Part shown: piece by piece, positions 6,857-37,488 of the stretch | How the letters are laid out: each line of letters begins with the position of its first letter | Numbering within the stretch: the first letter of the stretch is position 1 | Source of the DNA: Occultella glacieicola | GTDB lineage: Bacteria; Actinomycetota; Actinomycetes; Actinomycetales; Beutenbergiaceae | Length of the DNA: 64,000 nucleotides | Direction: 5' to 3' | NCBI RefSeq assembly: GCF_004353825.1 | Contig: NZ_SMNA01000003.1 | Coordinates: 1 to 64,000 of the forward strand | Position numbers and translations under genes: made by a program | The notes under the pieces: model-generated | Databases searched by the model: none | What the model was told of the DNA's origin: nothing | The model's input: the letters and a program-made list of their open reading frames with translations, nothing else

Positions 6857-7298
6857 GTTCCCCTCTGAACGAATGACTGTCCTCTAACACTACACCTGGC
6901 TGGATGTGGTTGGTCAACCCTCCAAACGGGGTCAAAGTCAAATAAGGGTCAGCCACCTGCGGGTGTTCCGACACCTCTGGCCTCTCGCCCGGTGTCGTGG
7001 ACGACGCGCCCGAGGTCAGTACACCTCACACGCCGGGCGTCCGATCGACCACTCGTCGAGGGCGCCCGAAAAGACCGATCCGCACGAGCGCTTCGACAAG
7101 GGACAGCCACGTCGTCGAACTCCAGGAGGATGTCGCCCTCTCAGGTACGTCTCCCGCGAAGTCACACGCCGCGCGGCGGCGCCAGGTTCACGCCGGTGGC
7201 AGCTGGGGCGACGACGGCAATGACGAGCCACCGCTGCTGACGCGACTTCCACGCCGAGCACAGCGAGCCGGCGGAGTCCTGACCGGCGCCCAGACCGC

Positions 7299-8696
7299 TT
7301 AGCGCGCCTCGCCACCGGCGGCGCCGAGGCGGCGCAGGAACATCGCCACGCCGAGCGCGATGTGCTCGATCTCTCCGGGATGCACGCTCTCGTTCGGGGC
7401 GTGCATCTGGCTCGCCGGTTCGGCGAGGCCGAGCATCACGATGGATGCGTCCGGCTGCGCGGCTGCCAGCGCCGGGGTCAGCGGGATCGAGCCGCCCTGG
7501 CCCGAGGTGACCGTGGGCCTACCGAACGAGTCACCAAGGGCCTCGTGCAGCGCCGCGAACGTGGGCGTGTCGGTGTCGGCACGGTAGGGCCGCCCGTTGC
7601 CCTGACCCTCGGTCGTGACCCGCACGCCCCACGGTGCGACGTCGACCAGGTGGGCCCGTAGCAGCCGTTCGGCGTCGTCCGGGTCCACGCCGGGCGGGAT
7701 CCGCAGGTTCAGCCGCGCGGCCGCGGTCGGCTGGATGGCCGCGACCGATCCGACCACGGCGGGGGCGTCCAGGCCGATCACGGTGACGGCGGGACGGGAC
7801 CAGACCTGGTCGGCCACGGTGCCCGAGCCGAGGCGGCGCCCGCCCGGCAGGATGCCGGCCTCCGCGCGGAACGTCTCCTCCTCGTACCCGGCCCCGTCCC
7901 AGACACCGTCGGCAGCCAAGCCGCGCACCGTGGTGTTGCCGTCGGCGTCACGCAGGGTGGCCAGGATCGCGATGAGGGCGGCCAGCGCATCCGGGGCGGC
8001 GCCTCCGAACGCGCCGGAGTGCAGTTCCCCGGCGAGGGCCTCGACCCGGACCACCACGTCCACGACCCCGCGCAGCGACACGGTCAGCGTGGGCTGCCCG
8101 ACCGCGACGTTGCCGGTGTCCTGGATCAGGATGACGTCCGCGGCGAACTCCTCGGGGTGGGCCTGCACGTACTGCTCCAGACCGCCCGTGCCCTGCTCCT
8201 CCGACCCCTCGACCACCACGGTCAGGGAGACCGGATAGTCGCCGTCGGGCCGGAGCGCGCGCAACGCGGTCAGGTGGGCGACGATGCTGCCCTTGCAGTC
8301 CGCGGCGCCGCGACCGTAGTACCGGCCGCCGCGCTCGGTGAGGGTGAACGGGTCCGTGGCCCAGGCCTCGGTGTTGGAGGCGGGCTGCACGTCGTAATGG
8401 GCGTAGAGCAGCACCCGGGGTGCGCCGGCGGGGCCTTCGTGGTGGGCGATGACGGCGTCGGTGCCGTCCGGGGTCCGCACGAGCGCGGCGTCGGCCAGAC
8501 CGATCTCGGCGAAGGCGTCGGCGACCCACTGCGCGGCCAGCCGGCACTGCTGTGGGTCCTCGACGGCGGGGTCGGCGACCGAGCGATAGGCGACCAGGTC
8601 GGCCAGGTCGGTCAGGGCCTGCGGCATCAGCGCGGCCACCCGGGTGCGCAGGTCGGCGTCGGTTCGCGGCGGGGTGGTGGTCTCGTCGGCGCTCAT
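7299..8696 (-). CDS. M20/M25/M40 family dipeptidase
   Basis: LYAHYDVQP, YGRGAADCKG, VEGSEEQG, HSGAFGG, GGSIP, HAPNES; start coupled to upstream TGA. Confidence 0.92.
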   Translation of the reverse strand: MSADETTTPPRTDADLRTRVAALMPQALTDLADLVAYRSVADPAVEDPQQCRLAAQWVADAFAEIGLADAALVRTPDGTDAVIAHHEGPAGAPRVLLYAHYDVQPASNTEAWATDPFTLTERGGRYYGRGAADCKGSIVAHLTALRALRPDGDYPVSLTVVVEGSEEQGTGGLEQYVQAHPEEFAADVILIQDTGNVAVGQPTLTVSLRGVVDVVVRVEALAGELHSGAFGGAAPDALAALIAILATLRDADGNTTVRGLAADGVWDGAGYEEETFRAEAGILPGGRRLGSGTVADQVWSRPAVTVIGLDAPAVVGSVAAIQPTAAARLNLRIPPGVDPDDAERLLRAHLVDVAPWGVRVTTEGQGNGRPYRADTDTPTFAALHEALGDSFGRPTVTSGQGGSIPLTPALAAAQPDASIVMLGLAEPASQMHAPNESVHPGEIEHIALGVAMFLRRLGAAGGEAR

Positions 8697-29666: not shown

Positions 29667-30710
29667 TCAGGCCGGCGCGAGCCGCCCCGTCTCGACCGCG
29701 GCCGCGGTGTCCTGCGTCACCAGGGCGGCGTTGATCTGCGCACCCGCCCGCATGCCGGCCGCGGCCGCCGTGATGACCTGCGTGCTCACATCGGCGACGT
29801 TCCCAGCGGCCCAGAGCCCCGGCACCGACGTCTCCCCCTTCGCGTCGGTGGGCAGGTAGGTCCCGAACACGGTCCCGCCGACCTCGAAGTCCTCGGCCCG
29901 CAGGCCCAACCCCTCCAACGGCCCCACCTGTGCGAACACGCGGGTCTGCACCGCGAGGGCGGCCCGTGGCACGAACGAACCCGACGCCAGACGGACCCCG
30001 GTGAGCCGGTCGTCGGCGCTCTCGACGGCCGCGACGGCCCCGTCGACGACGGCGATCCCGCGGGCGGACAATTGCTCCCACTCGGCCTCGGTCGGCTCGA
30101 GAACGTCGTTGAGGAACAGCGTCACGTCGGCGCTCCACTGGCGCAGCAGCAGCACCTGGTGCATGGCCATCGGCGTGGATGCGAGGACCCCGACCGCCTG
30201 ATCGCGGACCTCCCAGCCGTGGCAGTACGGGCAGTGCAGCACGTCCCGTCCGAAGCGCTCCGCCAGGCCCGGGAGGTCGGGGAGCTCGTCGCGGGCGCCG
30301 GTGGCGAGCAGCACGTGCCGGGCCCCGGTGCGGCGGCCGTCGTCGAGCCTCACCTCGAACCCACCGTCGGCACCCCGGTCGACGGCGGTGACCAGTCCCG
30401 CGGTCACCTCGCCGCCGTAACCGCCCACCTCCCTGCGGCCGATGGCGACCAGGTCCGCCGGCGGGGTGCCCTCGCGACCCAGGTAGTTGTGGACGCCGTC
30501 CGCCGGGGTGTTGCGCGGTTGCCCGGCATCCACGACGAGGACGCTGCGCCGGGCGCGCGCGAGGGTCAGCGCGGCGCTCAGACCCGCCGCCGCGCCGCCG
30601 ATCACCACCACGTCGTAGCGGTCGCGTAGTCCGGCGGCGTCGGGTGCGGGGTTCGGGTTCGGGTTCGGGTTCGGGTTCGGGTTCGGGTTCGGGTTCGGGT
30701 TCGTCTGCAC
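29667..30710 (-). CDS. NAD(P)/FAD-dependent oxidoreductase (TrxB-like) with N-terminal (NP)9 repeat
   Basis: AGGAG RBS + GTG; DVVVIGGAAAGL, LATG, HCPYCHG, TSVPGLWAAGN. Confidence 0.9.
   Translation of the reverse strand: MQTNPNPNPNPNPNPNPNPNPAPDAAGLRDRYDVVVIGGAAAGLSAALTLARARRSVLVVDAGQPRNTPADGVHNYLGREGTPPADLVAIGRREVGGYGGEVTAGLVTAVDRGADGGFEVRLDDGRRTGARHVLLATGARDELPDLPGLAERFGRDVLHCPYCHGWEVRDQAVGVLASTPMAMHQVLLLRQWSADVTLFLNDVLEPTEAEWEQLSARGIAVVDGAVAAVESADDRLTGVRLASGSFVPRAALAVQTRVFAQVGPLEGLGLRAEDFEVGGTVFGTYLPTDAKGETSVPGLWAAGNVADVSTQVITAAAAGMRAGAQINAALVTQDTAAAVETGRLAPA
30649..30702. repeat. Perfect hexanucleotide tandem repeat (GGGTTC)9
   Basis: Nine exact copies read directly. Confidence 0.97.
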
Positions 30711-31582: not shown

Positions 31583-33100
31583 ATGACCCGCGACCGCAGA
31601 ACCCCCGTGCTCATCGCCCTGATCCTGACGATGGCGCTGGTGGCGATGGACACCACGATCGTGGCCACCGCGATCCCCCAGGTGGTCGCGGACCTGGGTG
31701 GGTTCTCCGCCGTCGGCTGGGTGTTCTCCGTCTACCTGCTGGCGCAGACGGTGACGATCCCGGTCTACGGCAAGCTCGCCGACCTCTACGGGCGCAAGCC
31801 GGTCCTCGTGGTCGGGGTCTCGATCTTCCTGCTCGGCTCGCTGCTGTCCGCCGCGTCGCCGGACATGCTCACGCTGATCCTGTTCCGGGCCCTGCAGGGG
31901 GTCGGCGCCGGGGCCATCGGTGCCACCGTGAACACGATCGCCGGCGACCTCTACAGCGTCGCCGAGCGGGGCCGGGTACAGGGCTGGCTCGCCAGCGTGT
32001 GGGGCATCTCCGCCGTCGCCGCGCCAACCCTCGGTGGTCTGTTCGCGCAGTATCTGAGCTGGCGCTGGATCTTCCTGGTCAACCTGCCCCTCGGGGCGCT
32101 CGCCCTCACCCTGATCGTGCGCGGCCTGCACGAGGACGTGATCAGGCGGCGGCACCGGATCGACTACGCCGGCACCGTGCTGCTGCTGATCGCGGCGAGC
32201 CTGCTCATCCTGGGCCTGCTGCAGGGCGGGACCGCGTGGGCCTGGGACTCCGTCACGAGCGTGGTCGTGTTCGCCCTCGCGATCGGCGCCGGCGCCGCCT
32301 ACGTGCTGGTGGAGCACCGGGCCGCGGAGCCGATGATGCCGCCCTGGCTGTGGCGCACCCGCGTCACGGCAGGGTCCTACCTCGCCACCCTGACCGCGGG
32401 ACTGATGGTGATCGGGCTATCGGTGTTCCTGCCGAACTGGGGCCAGATCGTGCTCGGCCTGCCCCCGGTGTCGGCCGGCTTCGTGCTGGCGGCGATGTCG
32501 ATCACCTGGCCGACCGCCTCGGGGCTGTCCGCCCGCCTGTACCTGCGGATCGGATTCCGCGACACGGCCCTGGTCGGCGCGGTCTTCGCGCTGCTCGCCG
32601 GCGTGGTGTTCGCCCTGCTCGGCCCCGGTGCCCCGGTCTGGCAGCCGGTACTCGGGGCCGCGCTGCTCGGAGCCGGGATGGGCCTGATCACGTCCCCGCT
32701 GATGGTCGGGCTGCAGTCCACGGTGGGATGGGGTGAGCGGGGCGTGGTGACCGGTGGCGCGGTGTTCGCCAGGTTCCTCGGTCAGAGTGTCGGGGCAGCG
32801 GTCTTCGGCGCGCTGACCAATGCCGTGCTCCTGGACCGGCTCGCGACGGCGCCGGCCGGTCTGGCCGAGGATCTCCCGACCGACGTGGACGGCGTCAGTG
32901 CCTATCTTGCCGAGGCGCACCCCCGGCCGGAGGTCGCCGAGTTCCTGCGACTGGCCGTACACGATGCCACCCACGCGGTCTTCCTCGGGCTGCTGGTCGC
33001 GGCGGTCCTGACGGTGTTGGCGCTCGTGTTCGTGGTGCCACGCCGATTCCCGACCGTGGCCGAGGACCCGAATCCGACGAGTGCGCCACCGAGTCGTTGA
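31583..33100 (+). CDS. MFS drug:H+ antiporter (DHA2, 14-TM type)
   Basis: MDTTIVATAIP, YGKLADLYGRK, FRALQGVG, WRWIFLVNLP. Confidence 0.92.
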   Translation: MTRDRRTPVLIALILTMALVAMDTTIVATAIPQVVADLGGFSAVGWVFSVYLLAQTVTIPVYGKLADLYGRKPVLVVGVSIFLLGSLLSAASPDMLTLILFRALQGVGAGAIGATVNTIAGDLYSVAERGRVQGWLASVWGISAVAAPTLGGLFAQYLSWRWIFLVNLPLGALALTLIVRGLHEDVIRRRHRIDYAGTVLLLIAASLLILGLLQGGTAWAWDSVTSVVVFALAIGAGAAYVLVEHRAAEPMMPPWLWRTRVTAGSYLATLTAGLMVIGLSVFLPNWGQIVLGLPPVSAGFVLAAMSITWPTASGLSARLYLRIGFRDTALVGAVFALLAGVVFALLGPGAPVWQPVLGAALLGAGMGLITSPLMVGLQSTVGWGERGVVTGGAVFARFLGQSVGAAVFGALTNAVLLDRLATAPAGLAEDLPTDVDGVSAYLAEAHPRPEVAEFLRLAVHDATHAVFLGLLVAAVLTVLALVFVVPRRFPTVAEDPNPTSAPPSR

Positions 33101-33171
33101 CGACGACCCGGGGCGACCTCCGCGTTCCGGGTGCAGGAATTCGACGTGACAGTCCGGGTAAGGTGCCTGAC

Positions 33172-33237
33172 ATGTACCAGACGTCGCGTTCCGCCGCGGC
33201 CGCGCGAGCTATCCGCTCGCCGGCTGCCGCTGCCTGA
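33172..33237 (+). CDS. Putative Ala-rich leader peptide MYQTSRSAAAARAIRSPAAAA
   Basis: 21 codons, 9 Ala; TAAGGT -10-like box at 33159-33164, 7 nt before ATG; directly upstream of AlaRS-like gene. Confidence 0.75.
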   Translation: MYQTSRSAAAARAIRSPAAAA

Positions 33238-33334
33238 CGTCCACCCACGCACACCGGCGACCGGAAACGGTCCGCCGGTGTCATGCTGTTCAGGCAGTGC
33301 CATCGGGCTCCTTTCCGGTCGTCTCCCGAAAGGA
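33230..33334 (+). promoter_or_regulatory. Putative translational attenuator (alternative helices)
   Basis: CTGCCTGA/TCAGGCAG; ACACCGGCG/CGCCGGTGT hairpin with GAAA loop; CGACCGGAAA/TTTCCGGTCG; TCCTTTC/GAAAGGA (SD). Confidence 0.75.
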
Positions 33335-33342
33335 CCACTCCC

Positions 33343-34536
33343 TTGAGCCTCGACCAGACCTTCATCGACTTCTTCGTCCAGCACGGTCACATCCCGACCA
33401 CGGGATCCTCGCTGATCCCGCGCCCCGGCGACCCTGTGCTCTTCACGACCGCCGGCATGCATCCGCTGACGCCCTTCCTGGAGGGTGAGCCGCATCCACT
33501 CGGGCGACGGCTCGTCGGGGTCCAGCGATGCCTGCGCACCACCGACCTCGACGAGATCGGCGACCCGACCCACCTCACCGTGTTCGAGATGCTCGGCTCC
33601 TGGTCGCTCGGCGACTACGGCAGCGAGCAGAGCCTGCGCTGGGGATACGAGGTGCTCCGCGACAGGCTGGGCGTCGACCCCGACCGGATGCACGCCACCG
33701 TCTTCGGTGGCAACGACGAGGTCGAGCTCGACCTGGAGTCGCTGGACACCTGGCGCAGCCTCGGCGTCCCGGTCGAGCTGACCACCGAGGACAACTGGTG
33801 GTCGAACGGCCCGGCCGGTCCGTGCGGCCCGGACTCGGAGATCTTCCTGTGGACCGGCGATGGCTCACCGGAGGGCACGCCGACCAGCGACGACCGCTGG
33901 ATCGAGGTGTGGAACCACGTCATGGTGCGCTTCCGTCGGCACCAGGACGGGTCGCTGGAACCGCTGCCGCAACACAACATCGACACCGGCCTCGGCCTGG
34001 AGCGGCTCAGCATGCTGCTCGAGGGCAAGCGGTCCGTCTACGAGACCGAACTGTTCGAGCCATGGATGCGGCTCCTGCCCGAACTGTGGAGGCTGGACGA
34101 GGAGTCCGAGCGGATCGTGATCGACCACCTCCGCTCGAGCATCGTCATCATCGGCGACGGCGTCCGGCCGTCGAACACCGGACGCGGCTACGTGCTGCGC
34201 CGGCTGATCCGGCGGGTGCTGACCCTGCTGTGGCAGGTCGATCGGTCCAGGACGCTCGTCGATCTGCCGCTGGAGGTGGTCGAGCACACGCTGCGACACT
34301 TCCACCAGGATGAGGGCATGACGCTGGTGCAGCAGGTGCTGGTCGACGAGGAGGTCCGGTTCACCGACCTGCTCCAGCGGGGCAGGCGGATCCTCGGCAG
34401 CGACCGCTTCCGGAAGACCCTCGACGAAGAGGACTTCGAGTATCTGCACCAGACCCACGGACTCCCGCGGGAACTCGTCCGATCGCTGATCGCGCAAGAG
34501 AGTGGAGCGTCGGACGCTCCTCTCTCGCTGATCTAG
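33343..34536 (+). CDS. Short alanyl-tRNA synthetase paralogue (aminoacylation domain only, 397 aa)
   Basis: LFTTAGMHP, QRCLRTTDLDEIG..HLTVFEMLG, GPCGPDSEIF, EVWNHV, IDTGLGLERL, DHLRS, GRGYVLRRLIRR; no editing or C-Ala domain; TTG start after GAAAGGA. Confidence 0.9.
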   Translation: MSLDQTFIDFFVQHGHIPTTGSSLIPRPGDPVLFTTAGMHPLTPFLEGEPHPLGRRLVGVQRCLRTTDLDEIGDPTHLTVFEMLGSWSLGDYGSEQSLRWGYEVLRDRLGVDPDRMHATVFGGNDEVELDLESLDTWRSLGVPVELTTEDNWWSNGPAGPCGPDSEIFLWTGDGSPEGTPTSDDRWIEVWNHVMVRFRRHQDGSLEPLPQHNIDTGLGLERLSMLLEGKRSVYETELFEPWMRLLPELWRLDEESERIVIDHLRSSIVIIGDGVRPSNTGRGYVLRRLIRRVLTLLWQVDRSRTLVDLPLEVVEHTLRHFHQDEGMTLVQQVLVDEEVRFTDLLQRGRRILGSDRFRKTLDEEDFEYLHQTHGLPRELVRSLIAQESGASDAPLSLI

Positions 34537-34545
34537 TACCCGGCG

Positions 34546-34581
34546 GGCTGATCTCGCCCACGCGCAGGGGCGAGATCAGCC
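34546..34581. terminator. 14-bp hairpin between convergent AlaRS-like and rsmD genes
   Basis: GGCTGATCTCGCCC / GGGCGAGATCAGCC. Confidence 0.65.
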
Positions 34582-34595
34582 ACGCAGGTGCGATC

Positions 34596-35162
34596 TCACC
34601 GGGGGTCGCCGGCGGTGGTCGCGAACCACAGCGTCGTGTCGCCGTAGGTCTTCTCGCCGTCCGGGGTCAGCCCGTCCGGCCAGACGGGCTCCCCTGACCG
34701 GCCGGCCCGTTCGACCACGACCACGGCGCCCGGAGCGAGCCAACCCGGAAGCACCAGCGCAGCCAGCACCTCGTCGAGGCCGCCGAGGTCGTAGGGAGGG
34801 TCCGCCAGCACGAGGTCGAAGGGGCCGCCGGGCGGGTCGCCGCCGAGGTAACGCTCCGCTCGGGTCGCGACCACCCGGACCCGGTCCGCGAGGCCCACCT
34901 GCGCGGCATTGGCCCGGCACAGTGCGGCGGCGGCCTTCGCCGCCTCGACCGCGACCACCTCGGCGGCGCCGCGGCTCGCGGCCTCCAGCCCGAGCGCACC
35001 GGAGCCGGCGTACAGGTCGAGCACCCGGGCCCCGCGGACCACGCCGAGATGGTCGAGCCGGGAGAACAGGGCCTCCCTGACCCGTTCGCTGGTGGGCCGG
35101 GTCCCGGCCGGCGGCACCTTGAGGGTCCGGCCGCCCGCGGAGCCGGCGACGATCCTGGTCAC
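34596..35162 (-). CDS. rsmD: 16S rRNA m2G966 methyltransferase
   Basis: TRIVAG, TRPTSERVREALF, LDLYAGSGALGLEA, DPPY. Confidence 0.95.
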   Translation of the reverse strand: MTRIVAGSAGGRTLKVPPAGTRPTSERVREALFSRLDHLGVVRGARVLDLYAGSGALGLEAASRGAAEVVAVEAAKAAAALCRANAAQVGLADRVRVVATRAERYLGGDPPGGPFDLVLADPPYDLGGLDEVLAALVLPGWLAPGAVVVVERAGRSGEPVWPDGLTPDGEKTYGDTTLWFATTAGDPR

Positions 35163-36784
35163 CGCGGTCCCGCGGCCTTCTGCGCCTCGGTCGCCCGCTC
35201 CATCATCGAGGGCTTCTTCTCGTCCTTGACATGGGTCGCGATCGCGAACGCGATGGCCGAGGTTGCGGCCTGCAGCCACACGAGCACGAACGTGGGGCCG
35301 AACGCGATCAAGGCGATGAGGGTCGGGATCAGGCAGATCACCACGAGGTCGGGGCCGCGGGCGAAGGCCAGCAGCACCCCGGGCGGCACCGGACCCATCG
35401 GGCCCGTCACCAGTGGCTTGGTCCAGTCCGGCGGCTTCCGGTACGCCGCCCGGACCACACCGGCGGCGAAGGTGGGGGCGGCGATCACGCCGAGCGCGAT
35501 CCAGCCGGGCAGGTTGCCATGGGTGGCGCCCCAGACTGCGAACACCCCGGCGGACCAGAGCACCATGATGACGCCCGGCAGAATGATCCGGACCCGGCGC
35601 ACGTCGAACGCGGAGATCGGGAAGAACCGGTCCAGCACCGGCGCCATCTCGGCGCGGCGGGCGCTCTCGGCGGTGGCCATCGCGGCCAGGTACCCGCCGA
35701 GGAGCAGGGTCGTCACGTTGACCCAGGTCGGCCAGCCGGCGAGCAGCGCCATCAGGGCCAGGGAAGCCGCGACCACGATCTGGATGAGGTGACGCGGTGA
35801 CCGGGACAGCACCAGGGCGTCGCCGGTGACGATCGCACTCACGGGGCCACGGACCCAGGCCATACGAGCCGACCGGCGGCGCTGGTCCGGAGCGGTGCTC
35901 CCGCTCAGCGCCCGGCCGAGTTCCCGGGTGTCCATCGAGGTCACCGCACCGGCGGCGTAGGCCGAGACCGCGCCCCGGGCCCGCAGTTCCCGGCCGGAGA
36001 TCGCGTTCAGGCCGGTGTCCACCCGGACCAACAGGGCCACCACCAGAACGGCAAGCACGGCGATCGCGACCACGGCCACCGTGCCGGTCGGCATCATCAG
36101 CGGCGGCGGACGCACGAACACCACGGCCAGTCCGAGGACCGGCCCGGCGGCCATCAGGATGTCGCCGATCAGCGCGGCCGGGCGCACCCGCCGGGCCCGC
36201 TTGTTGCCGAGCTGTACCTGCCCGGCCGCGGCGGCGAGCGCGAGCGCGGCTCCACCCAGGGTGCTGAGGACGACGATCGAACCGAGCGCCGGTCCCGGCT
36301 CCCCGAGCGCCAGGAACCCGATCAGGAGCCCACCGGCGGCGCCGACCGCGGCGCCCATGATCGGCACCAGCACCGACCGGGGGCGCAGCAGTCCCCGGCG
36401 GTCCGCCGGCGTCGGTAGCCACCAGACGGCCTGACCGCCGCCCATTCCGACCGGGCCGATCCGACCCGCGAGCCCCACGATCGCCCCGGCCACGATGAGG
36501 GTGGTGACCACGGCGAGCCAGGTCGGATCGAGCGTGTGCACCTCCGGGCCGGGGGTGAGGGTGGCGTTCAGGCCCTGCACCGCACCGAGCGCGATCGCCA
36601 GGGCGATGGCGGCGCTGAACACCACCGAGTAGACCTCCGAGATGACCTCGAAGTAGCTCCCACCGGTGTGCGCGTCGGTCGCGTCCCGGGTCAGCGAGCG
36701 CAGCTGCCGGCCATTCGGCCAGGCGTCGTCGTCGCCCCGAGGGTCCTCGACCGGCCGGGTCTCGTCGGCGTCCGTGGTGCTCAC
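35159..36784 (-). CDS. DUF6297-like multi-TM membrane protein
   Basis: Many TM helices; translationally coupled to ABC ATPase and rsmD. Confidence 0.75.
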   Translation of the reverse strand: MSTTDADETRPVEDPRGDDDAWPNGRQLRSLTRDATDAHTGGSYFEVISEVYSVVFSAAIALAIALGAVQGLNATLTPGPEVHTLDPTWLAVVTTLIVAGAIVGLAGRIGPVGMGGGQAVWWLPTPADRRGLLRPRSVLVPIMGAAVGAAGGLLIGFLALGEPGPALGSIVVLSTLGGAALALAAAAGQVQLGNKRARRVRPAALIGDILMAAGPVLGLAVVFVRPPPLMMPTGTVAVVAIAVLAVLVVALLVRVDTGLNAISGRELRARGAVSAYAAGAVTSMDTRELGRALSGSTAPDQRRRSARMAWVRGPVSAIVTGDALVLSRSPRHLIQIVVAASLALMALLAGWPTWVNVTTLLLGGYLAAMATAESARRAEMAPVLDRFFPISAFDVRRVRIILPGVIMVLWSAGVFAVWGATHGNLPGWIALGVIAAPTFAAGVVRAAYRKPPDWTKPLVTGPMGPVPPGVLLAFARGPDLVVICLIPTLIALIAFGPTFVLVWLQAATSAIAFAIATHVKDEKKPSMMERATEAQKAAGPR

Positions 36785-37488
36785 ATCGCCTCGATCGCCT
36801 GGGCTGCCACCTCGGGGCTGACCACCCGGACCTCGTCCTCGCCGAGCAGCACCGCTCGGGTGGCCACCACCCGGACCAGCACCGGGTCGTGGGTGGCCAT
36901 GACCACGCCACCGCCACTCTTGCGCTCGGCGGCGAGCCGCTCCGCCAGCCGGTCCCGCATCCCGGAGTCCAGCCGCTGCTCGGGTTCGTCCAGGACCATC
37001 AGCCGCCGCGGCCGCACGAACGCCGAGGCGAGCAGCAGCCGGCGCCGCTGGCCCGAGGACAGTGCGGTCGGGGCGGCCTGCTGGCGGGCGGTGAGGCCGA
37101 ACTCCTCGATGATCTCGGTGACCAGCTCGGACACGCGTTCCATGCCGTGCCCTCGGGCGGTCAGCAGGAGGTGCTCGCGGACGGTGAGGGCCGGCAGGTA
37201 GGAGTCCTCGTCGAGCACGATCGCGACGTCCGCCCGGAACCGGCGGGCCCGCTCGTCGACGGGCCGCCCGAAAACGTCGATCTGGCCGCCGAGGACGTCG
37301 AGGAGGCCGGCGACGGCGCGCAGGAACGTCGACTTGCCGGTGCCGTTCGCGCCCACCACGGCCAGGCCCTCGCCTGGCTTCATGTTCACCGTGATCGGCG
37401 GGCACACGGCGCTGGCGATGTCCGAGCCGTAGCCGACGCTGACCTTGTCCGCACGGATCATGGGGGCGGTCGTCTGCTTCTTAGCCAC
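36781..37488 (-). CDS. ABC transporter ATP-binding protein
   Basis: GANGTGKST, LSSGQRRR, VLDEP, ATHD. Confidence 0.92.
   Translation of the reverse strand: MAKKQTTAPMIRADKVSVGYGSDIASAVCPPITVNMKPGEGLAVVGANGTGKSTFLRAVAGLLDVLGGQIDVFGRPVDERARRFRADVAIVLDEDSYLPALTVREHLLLTARGHGMERVSELVTEIIEEFGLTARQQAAPTALSSGQRRRLLLASAFVRPRRLMVLDEPEQRLDSGMRDRLAERLAAERKSGGGVVMATHDPVLVRVVATRAVLLGEDEVRVVSPEVAAQAIEAM

Follow-up and report, generated by a model that had tools for sequence, protein, structure and literature searches.

The window analysed here is a 64,000-nt stretch of the Occultella glacieicola genome (assembly GCF_004353825.1, contig NZ_SMNA01000003.1, positions 1 to 64,000 of the forward strand), and the subject of this study is a short alanyl-tRNA synthetase (AlaRS) gene within it, here called mini-AlaRS, together with the leader RNA that precedes it. 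A longer open reading frame (ORF) is found at 33283-34536 on the + strand; among the four Occultella-genus genomes, however, the stretch 33283-33343 carries a 2-nt indel that breaks the frame and is therefore not coding, which rules out an N-terminal extension from the ATG at 33283. This comparison places the true start of the gene at the TTG codon at 33343, giving 397 aa; TTG is also used in one of the three sister-genome loci and ATG in the other two, and a Shine-Dalgarno (SD) sequence, GAAAGGA, lies 8 nt 5' of the TTG. The gene and the repeat that follows it are:

33343..34536, + strand: mini-AlaRS gene, 397 aa, with a class II catalytic domain at residues ~1-245 and a tRNA-recognition domain at residues ~246-388
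34526..34601, no strand assigned: inverted repeat lying between mini-AlaRS and rsmD, which are convergent (arms 34526-34559 and 34568-34601; perfect core 34546-34559 with 34568-34581)

Pfam matches a single family in the protein, PF01411 (tRNA-synt_2c; E 2.5e-88; profile positions 3-409 of 552), and the NCBIfam alaS models match it over their N-terminal ~410 positions only. In the Pfam domain search neither an editing domain (tRNA_SAD) nor a C-Ala domain, the dimerisation element of AlaRS, was found. An earlier note, made from the letters of this DNA alone, had described just such a 397-aa protein, with class II and tRNA-recognition parts and nothing of an editing or a C-Ala domain, and had pointed to a clean stop and a downstream hairpin; both descriptions hold. 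The C-terminus lies 27 residues past the motif YLHQTHGLP, the stop codon is a clean TAG, and the inverted repeat at its end probably forms a two-way terminator hairpin serving mini-AlaRS and rsmD, which the terminator scan does not call because the repeat has no T run.

In the 5' flanks of the four Occultella-genus genomes, about 200 nt upstream of mini-AlaRS are conserved above the level of the gene's synonymous sites, and the same leader element was then found in every genus carrying the gene. In the window the leader spans 33159-33342 and comprises the following elements:

33159..33164, + strand: -10-like promoter hexamer TAAGGT (TANNNT), whose end lies 7 nt upstream of the ATG of the upstream ORF (uORF)
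33172..33237, + strand: leader-peptide uORF of 21 codons plus TGA, peptide MYQTSRSAAAARAIRSPAAAA, with 9 Ala and the first Ala cluster at codons 8-11
33196..33227, + strand: helix 1:2, pairing region 1 (33196-33202, in the first Ala cluster) with region 2 (33221-33227, Pro-Ala-Ala codons)
33206-33209 (GAGC) with 33215-33218 (GCTC), + strand: inner hairpin of helix 1:2 in the RNAalifold consensus
33220..33264, + strand: proposed antiterminator 2:3 of 9 bp, CCGGCTGCC (33220-33228) with GGCGACCGG (33256-33264), the latter in the 5' arm of the terminator
33251..33281, + strand: predicted attenuator (terminator) hairpin 3:4, GC-rich and GNRA-capped, with a GAAA tetraloop at 33264-33267
33309..33334, + strand: predicted SD-sequestering hairpin, anti-SD TCCTTTC (33309-33315) with the SD GAAAGGA (33328-33334)

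The layout of the leader is strikingly constant. All 52 leaders compared have a TANNNT hexamer that ends 6-7 nt upstream of the uORF ATG, against a background of 2.0% of positions, a spacing that suggests a leaderless transcript with its first nucleotide at or close to the uORF start codon. Of 53 loci, 52 have a uORF of 20-23 codons whose end lies 13-25 nt upstream of the hairpin, as do both plasmid loci, and the leader travels with the mini-AlaRS gene in 54 of the 55 loci examined. Alanine makes up a fraction of 0.23-0.43 of the residues across 43 distinct uORF peptides (median 0.33), compared with 0.114 in four window proteins. Arg at -10, Ala at -9, Ser at -6 and Ala at -3 are invariant in all 43 of these peptides; the conserved tail reads R-A-x-x-S-P-(A/V)-A-(A/D)-A-stop, and R-A-x-x-S-P-A-A-A-A-stop in the window. 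A diverged leader of the same layout stands before a 60-61% identical gene in two Kribbella genomes (loci L072 and L073; genomes G054 and G090), with a -10 box, an Ala-containing uORF (in L072 with the peptide M K N L V R V A A A G A F A P S A D L T) and a terminator followed by a clear T run. The sole locus of the 53 without the hairpin motif, L044, comes from an uncultured Actinomycetes metagenome-assembled genome; its protein match begins at query residue 59, and this copy may be 5'-truncated.

Helix statistics were obtained from 29 diverse leader sequences with an RNAalifold consensus and 500 shuffles. In the helix 1:2, 97-99% of cells are paired, and one column pair (42:67) occurs as GC in 19, AU in 6 and GU in 4 sequences. 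The terminator 3:4, a hairpin of 11-13 bp with 11 pairs scored, is 96.9% paired and has compensatory changes at 4 pairs; a T-rich run follows it in Kribbella. The OFF structure, i.e. helix 1:2 plus terminator, is 97.3% paired (25-53% with the partners slid) and contains 17 double-change cells, compared with 4.8 +/- 1.8 in the shuffles, none of the 500 reaching 17. For the antiterminator 2:3, 93.1% of cells are paired, compared with 11-48% when the partner is slid, and it is the minimum free energy (MFE) fold of the nascent segment, before the 3' arm of the terminator is made, in 27 of the 29 sequences; the nascent folds of the window and of one other leader (L040) use a neighbouring register that likewise occupies the 5' arm of the terminator. 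The complete window leader folds at -83.9 kcal/mol (z = -4.7), and its MFE fold also contains the SD hairpin, whose partner shifts together with the SD region in the Kribbella and Streptomyces sequences. In its layout the leader resembles a ribosome-mediated transcription attenuator with the regulatory codons in region 1: it has a short putative uORF rich in Ala codons and a predicted intrinsic terminator between leader and gene.

This leader belongs to mini-AlaRS and to no other gene that we could find. A covariance model detects one copy in the O. glacieicola genome (122.7 bits; next best 18.5); among 98 Kribbella genomes 94 have exactly one copy each, and in 149 other Actinomycetota no match exceeds 24 bits. 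The possibility that the same leader precedes other genes was dismissed, as nhmmer and the covariance model find only the one copy in the genome; the housekeeping alaS is without such a leader. In six Kribbella pairs compared by coordinates the leader lies directly upstream of the gene, and leader and gene occur together in 92 Kribbella genomes; two further Kribbella genomes have a leader with no protein match at threshold, one at a contig end and one with a frameshifted gene. A T-box or other known RNA upstream was also considered and rejected: with an E limit of 1 the only Rfam match is a spurious miRNA (E 0.3), which reflects the hairpin downstream of the gene (34526..34601), and the leader itself matches no Rfam family. 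The idea that mini-AlaRS is inducible, put forward in the earlier note from the protein and its surroundings, is strongly favoured by this conserved Ala-rich leader peptide with its terminator and candidate antiterminator, on purely computational grounds.

The protein family is well delimited. The best 120 protein-search matches to mini-AlaRS are 74-91% identical to it and come from Occultella, Kribbella and a Streptomyces; members are annotated by NCBI as 'alanine--tRNA ligase-related protein', and in 122 of 123 family proteins (the best 120 matches plus three close library representatives) the length is 378-402 aa. In a tree of 153 N-terminal AlaRS regions, calculated in 'quick' mode with LG+G4 and including many rows with unusual composition, the family (21 rows) forms one clade with 100% support in the Shimodaira-Hasegawa-like approximate likelihood ratio test (SH-aLRT) and a stem of 0.41, and the resident AlaS of the genome groups with that of E. 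coli in a separate 53-row clade. The tree leaves the deep position of the family unresolved; the nearest sequences outside it are 580-610-aa AlaRS forms that still carry the editing motif. A recent truncation of the resident alaS, which the earlier note had named among the findings that would speak against its reading, is ruled out by the separate clades and by an identity of only 34-38% between mini-AlaRS and the resident alaS product. The ratio of nonsynonymous to synonymous substitution rates (dN/dS) of the gene, 0.11-0.36, indicates purifying selection (0.21 for the catalytic and 0.34 for the tRNA-recognition domain in 262 pairs), and together with the distinct clade it bears out the view of mini-AlaRS as a second AlaRS without editing and not a pseudogene.

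The distribution is patchy. Of the Kribbella genomes 94 of 98 have the gene, as have all four from the window's genus; it occurs in none of the 37 other genomes of the window's family and order, and in 1 of 400 other Actinomycetota in an even sample. It is sporadic in Streptomyces, large plasmids included; eight large Streptomyces-type plasmids carry copies that are 63-67% identical. The Occultella-genus copies nest within those of Kribbella (supports 93 and 100) and are 83-84% identical to the Kribbella orskensis protein even though the two genera belong to different orders, which suggests a horizontal acquisition by the Occultella genus. Wherever both genes were checked (eight genomes), a full-length alaS coexists with mini-AlaRS.

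An AlphaFold2 model of mini-AlaRS (built on 36 sequences; mean predicted local distance difference test score, pLDDT, 89.1) superposes with Z 39-40 on the catalytic fragments of human and E. coli AlaRS; against E. coli AlaRS441 (Z 39.0), model residues 1-397 align with chain residues 2-418. For a comparison of residues we used 95 AlaRS of at least 560 aa and 20 members of the mini-AlaRS family, and considered the columns that are at least 85% conserved in the longer enzymes. Alanine activation looks intact, since 72 of 80 near-invariant AlaRS columns have the same residue in the mini-AlaRS family. Retained are R70, E210, N213, V215, D236 and G238 (E. coli numbering with Met1), as well as the motif-2 Arg, the E-x-W-N-x-V strand, the D-T-G-x-G-x-E-R motif, the G-R-G-Y-V-L-R-R helix and N303. 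In AlaRS, Asn303 reads U70 and Asp400 reads G3 of tRNAAla (PMC10036535); the equivalent of the former is Asn in 121 of the 122 family proteins scored, and the position of the latter holds Glu in 116, Asp in 2 and Gln in 4 of 122. One residue of the D-P-x-L-L-F segment is lost throughout the family. A 4-residue gap in the motif-2 loop was considered as a sign of lost function and discarded, as the full-length AlaS of the same genome has the same gap. We also considered a natural counterpart of L219M, the exchange reported to abolish serine activation in Methylomonas AlaRS (PMC12143591), but the family has Leu at the equivalent residue. Met occupies this position in 1 of 150 AlaRS library representatives. 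Mini-AlaRS would thus be expected to mis-activate Ser and Gly like other AlaRS, unless a family-wide change at F216, treated below, matters.

The earlier note had called for a search for a full-length alaS and a stand-alone AlaX: the former exists, encoding 901 aa on another contig of the assembly, and the latter was not found when the assembly was searched with PF07973 (tRNA_SAD), which matches only alaS and one 698-aa ORF that we take to be thrS. D-aminoacyl-tRNA deacylase (DTD) is present; as candidates for removing mischarged tRNA there are only this enzyme and the editing domain of the resident AlaRS. Among 55 aragorn calls, three are ordinary tRNAAla genes, their acceptor stems carrying G3:U70; a special tRNA partner for mini-AlaRS was rejected, two extra 100-nt 'Ala' calls and one '???' call looking spurious.

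With better than even confidence, we favour an explanation in which mini-AlaRS is an auxiliary, editing-less AlaRS, pared down to the aminoacylation module (catalytic domain and acceptor-stem recognition domain), whose synthesis is induced by ribosome stalling when Ala-tRNAAla is scarce, because induction at low charging fits an enzyme that charges tRNA and not one that consumes Ala-tRNA. We propose that gene and leader form a self-contained cassette with its own sensor, and we infer the following course of transcription start, switching, tRNAAla charging and trans-editing. Transcription would start at the leaderless, Ala-rich 21-codon uORF. With plentiful Ala-tRNAAla the ribosome would reach the uORF stop codon and region 2 would be held by 1:2 pairing or by the ribosome itself; with region 2 occupied, the GNRA-capped hairpin 3:4 would form and transcription would stop before the mini-AlaRS gene. 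A uORF that is not translated at all would likewise allow the terminator. When Ala-tRNAAla is scarce, be it through alanine shortage or through inhibition or failure of the housekeeping AlaRS, the ribosome would stall on the first Ala cluster (region 1), region 2 would become available to the terminator's 5' arm as a pairing partner, and RNA polymerase would continue into the gene. Mini-AlaRS would then add tRNAAla-charging capacity, and any Ser- or Gly-tRNAAla it made would have to be cleared in trans by the editing domain of the resident AlaRS and by DTD. In nature the shortage could stem from AlaRS inhibitors, from limited alanine or from a failing main enzyme; the gene's patchy, transfer-prone spread and its presence on plasmids point more to defence, its near-core, syntenic state in Kribbella more to physiology. 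Attenuation of synthetase genes by their own amino acid is known for E. coli pheST and for S. coelicolor trpRS1, whose product TrpRS1 is under a ribosome-mediated attenuator. In actinobacteria, moreover, an Ala-rich uORF followed by a Rho-independent terminator before whiB7 is described as an experimentally supported sensor of alanine and translation (PMC10274678).

A number of observations weigh against this explanation. On the side of the RNA, the covariation of the antiterminator is weak (its values are reached by 16/500 and 14/500 shuffles) and a central C.A mismatch interrupts it in 17 of the 29 sequences; the T run behind the window's terminator is weak, and a simple terminator scan does not call it, just as a simple scan calls no promoter in the window leader. 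With region 1 blocked, equilibrium folding of the complete leader still favours the terminator for 5 of 6 sequences, so that, on these models, any switch must be kinetic; classical attenuators also switch kinetically. The SD hairpin is predicted in every folding state of all six leaders folded, and the attenuator explains neither the role of this persistent hairpin nor the invariant R-A-x-x-S-P tail of the uORF peptide. The uORFs of Streptomycetaceae are also Thr-rich, and the pairing itself may dictate some of the Ala run. On the side of the gene, constraint is 3-5 times weaker than on alaS of the same genus (dN/dS 0.25-0.36 vs 0.015-0.09, the latter for the region matching mini-AlaRS), and one Kribbella copy (L071), broken into five frames behind an intact leader, argues for dispensability. 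This leader scores 121.8 bits and the gene behind it matches in five pieces in different frames; the copy is either decaying or the result of an assembly error. The protein also falls below both NCBIfam alaS cut-offs (308.2 vs 457.05 bits for TIGR00344; 325.1 vs 529 for NF002436). In O. glacieicola itself the D400-equivalent residue is Gln, and two replacements are family-wide, K104 -> G/S and F216 -> M, the second beside the substrate-discriminating Val that touches the methyl group of alanine; like the Thr-rich uORFs, these two replacements are left unexplained. Finally, mini-AlaRS ends at about E. coli residue 418, ~20-40 residues before the ends of the fragments reported to be active, all of which are longer (441 residues for E. 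coli; 429 for Methylomonas, corresponding to ~E. coli 440; 461 for the Tupanvirus enzyme TuAlaRS). In favour of the auxiliary enzyme, activity is described both for truncated AlaRS429 (PMC12143591) and for the 461-aa TuAlaRS (PMC10036535).

A narrower and less likely version of the auxiliary-enzyme explanation sees in the same cassette a dedicated resistance enzyme for surviving mimics of alanyl-adenylate (Ala-AMP) such as the ascamycin-type aminoacyl-sulfamoyl adenosines. Inhibition of the housekeeping AlaRS would then lower Ala-tRNAAla, the leader would detect this drop, and mini-AlaRS would be intrinsically insensitive. Precedents are AcmD, a second AlaRS described as more ascamycin-resistant than the canonical enzyme (PMC12945691), and S. 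coelicolor TrpRS1, listed as an indolmycin-resistant auxiliary enzyme (PMC9437257). The transfer-prone spread in soil actinomycetes (copies nested in Kribbella, 1 of 400 Actinomycetota, eight plasmids), a plasmid copy ~5 kb from a viomycin phosphotransferase gene and the family-specific changes beside the active-site Val agree with it, as does the presence of a second copy in addition to the housekeeping enzyme in all eight genomes checked, a hallmark of resistance-type auxiliary aminoacyl-tRNA synthetases (aaRS). However, inhibitor insensitivity is not readable from the sequence, every AlaRS must bind Ala-AMP, no biosynthetic cluster or conserved exporter accompanies the gene, and its near-core, syntenic state in Kribbella fits a physiological role equally well. 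Rather doubtful, though the most far-reaching, is the proposal of a mobile, self-regulating cassette that senses AlaRS failure through stalling at Ala codons and restores alanyl-tRNA charging with a mini enzyme intrinsically insensitive to natural Ala-AMP mimics. The F216 -> M and K104 -> G/S exchanges, as second-shell changes, might let mini-AlaRS work without an editing domain of its own.

Whether the activated alanine goes to tRNAAla at all can be questioned. Mini-AlaRS could pass Ala-AMP, or the adenylate of a related acid such as lactate, to another acceptor, or bind tRNA in a regulatory role; the protein is shorter than any fragment that we found reported to charge tRNA, its tRNA-recognition half is under looser constraint (0.34 vs 0.21), K104 and F216 are replaced, and lactyltransferase activity has been reported for AlaRS (PMC12143591). 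We consider this unlikely, given that purifying selection acts on the entire tRNA-recognition domain, where N303 and the Arg-rich helix are intact, that no carrier protein or partner gene is conserved alongside, and that an Ala-tRNA-sensing leader fits tRNA charging best. A quite improbable variant on the side of the signal is a general translation-stress cassette, in which the uORF would report any ribosome stalling. Starvation of many kinds and drugs that target the ribosome are described as signals for the whiB7 uORF (PMC10274678), codons for Arg, Ser, Thr, Met and His also occur in the present uORFs, and their invariant R-A-x-x-S-P tail could be a nascent-peptide arrest motif; Ala alone, however, is enriched throughout the 43 distinct peptides (0.23-0.43), its codons sit in region 1, where a stall would free region 2, and the regulated product is an AlaRS. 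The earlier note had further entertained an alanyl donor, i.e. a transferase like AcmF that takes Ala-tRNAAla from the housekeeping enzyme and moves the alanyl group to a small molecule. AcmF does share the truncated two-domain architecture (PMC12945691), but it is described as being without most ATP- and alanine-activation residues, with N219Q and D232E 13 residues apart (PMC12945691), whereas mini-AlaRS keeps Asn and Asp at these sites, 23 residues apart as in E. coli; a Q/E pair occurs in none of the 150 library representatives. Neither a sulfamate nor any other biosynthetic cluster lies nearby, the neighbours vary between genera, and to induce an Ala-tRNA consumer while Ala-tRNA is scarce makes no sense, so that this role is disfavoured and strikes us as highly improbable.

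Auxiliary aaRS paralogues and amino-acid attenuators are each known already, and it is with these that the auxiliary, attenuator-controlled mini-AlaRS has to be compared. AcmD and AcmF, from the ascamycin cluster of Streptomyces sp. 80H647, are likewise extra AlaRS-type proteins in an actinomycete (PMC12945691), AcmF with the catalytic plus tRNA-recognition architecture of mini-AlaRS and AcmD as a second AlaRS giving self-resistance (PMC12945691). They differ from mini-AlaRS in that AcmF, compared here by its description only, has lost the activation residues that mini-AlaRS keeps and uses Ala-tRNA as donor (PMC12945691), that AcmD groups with ordinary AlaRS in the authors' tree (PMC12945691), and that both lie in a biosynthetic cluster and mini-AlaRS does not; the review describes no leader (PMC12945691). 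TuAlaRS is a natural AlaRS with the aminoacylation domain only, active on tRNAAla and on an acceptor-stem helix and able to rescue yeast (PMC10036535). It is, in contrast, viral, related to the enzyme of the amoebal host, 461 aa long and without the conserved Asn and Asp (PMC10036535), whereas mini-AlaRS is bacterial, has 378-402 aa, keeps the Asn, has mostly Glu or Asp at the other position and occurs together with a full-length alaS. In domains and fold, E. coli AlaRS441 and Methylomonas AlaRS429 agree with mini-AlaRS (Z 38-39), and AlaRS429 is reported as active and, without editing, still activating Ser (PMC12143591); both are laboratory truncations, ~20-25 residues longer than mini-AlaRS.

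S. coelicolor TrpRS1 is likewise a second, inducible aaRS beside a housekeeping one (PMC9437257). Unlike mini-AlaRS it is full-length and Trp-specific, and its resistance has been shown experimentally. The threonyl-tRNA synthetase ThrRS T2 of Anabaena has no editing and keeps its fidelity through hetero-oligomers. This duplicated aaRS accompanies a housekeeping copy and is produced under stress (PMC9437257; PMC4787780). It differs in responding to zinc limitation, and mini-AlaRS is without the dimerising C-Ala domain; a corresponding zinc control of mini-AlaRS by Zur was discarded, as no AT-rich palindrome was seen in the leader by eye, without a formal scan. The leader, in turn, resembles that of whiB7 in mycobacteria and the trp and pheST attenuators, in which the amino acid to be sensed is enriched in a uORF, and a Rho-independent terminator, with an antiterminator as the alternative fold, comes after it. 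In the case of whiB7 the uORF is rich in alanine and described as responding to alanine starvation (PMC10274678), but it controls a transcription factor and is longer and variable, whereas the mini-AlaRS leader has a compact, sequence-conserved uORF of 21 codons and is linked one-to-one with an AlaRS paralogue.

In the open-access full text that we searched, where subscription papers could be missed, no paper on the mini-AlaRS family was found; AcmD/AcmF, the Tupanvirus enzyme, whiB7 and the engineered fragments were the only related items, and the table of a 2022 review lists no auxiliary AlaRS (PMC9437257). The combination of an aminoacylation-only AlaRS, natural and bacterial, with an Ala-codon attenuator of its own is undescribed in this literature. 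The only natural mini-AlaRS that we found in print, as presented there, is viral (PMC10036535). Here a bacterial one is maintained in nearly all genomes of a large soil genus and moves among actinomycete lineages and plasmids. To our knowledge, AlaRS is generally presented as having the same four-domain plan across biology. If the doubtful proposal of an intrinsically insensitive, mobile cassette were true, mini-AlaRS would be a natural bacterial exception to this plan, its leader the first attenuator described for an AlaRS gene, and the whole a resistance determinant that spreads without a biosynthetic cluster. The leader would be a compact new attenuator RNA, absent from Rfam, and its Ala-codon sensor turns the vague label of an AlaRS-related protein into a prediction, namely that the gene is made when Ala-tRNAAla drops. 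It also raises the questions of when an AlaRS without proofreading is tolerated, what cleans up after it, and whether soil bacteria have a cluster-independent protection against AlaRS inhibitors.

The neighbours of mini-AlaRS are conserved within Kribbella and within the window's genus, and not between these genera; a conserved gene partner or operon was looked for across genera and none was found. The earlier note had argued from an accessory block beside a major facilitator superfamily (MFS) exporter. The MFS gene upstream of the leader (31583-33100) is real by its Pfam match, but it is absent from this place in all three sister-genome loci (L060, L053 and L027), which have thyX on the opposite strand (~7020-7832) at the same spot just upstream of the leader, and a tblastn search found no thyX anywhere in the O. 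glacieicola assembly. The difference looks like a local gene replacement beside the cassette, and the argument from the exporter falls away, the MFS neighbour being confined to this genome and incidental to mini-AlaRS. On the linear 268-kb Streptomyces cyaneofuscatus plasmid NZ_CP108862.1 (L061), the cassette lies ~5 kb from the viomycin phosphotransferase gene and ~3 kb from a type I-E CRISPR-Cas locus.

Two further features of the window were noted. Between rsmD and recG, on the - strand at 35159-37488, a DUF6297 membrane protein gene is paired with that of an ATP-binding cassette (ABC) ATPase (AAA_21 match), and the pair is kept in the sister genomes. At 30640-30703, between divergent genes for a thioredoxin-reductase-like protein and a helix-turn-helix (HTH)-cupin regulator, a 6-nt tandem repeat with the unit TCGGGT runs for 10.5 copies; in long spurious ORFs it reads (PN)n or (EP)n and causes a Trypan_PARP match in Pfam.

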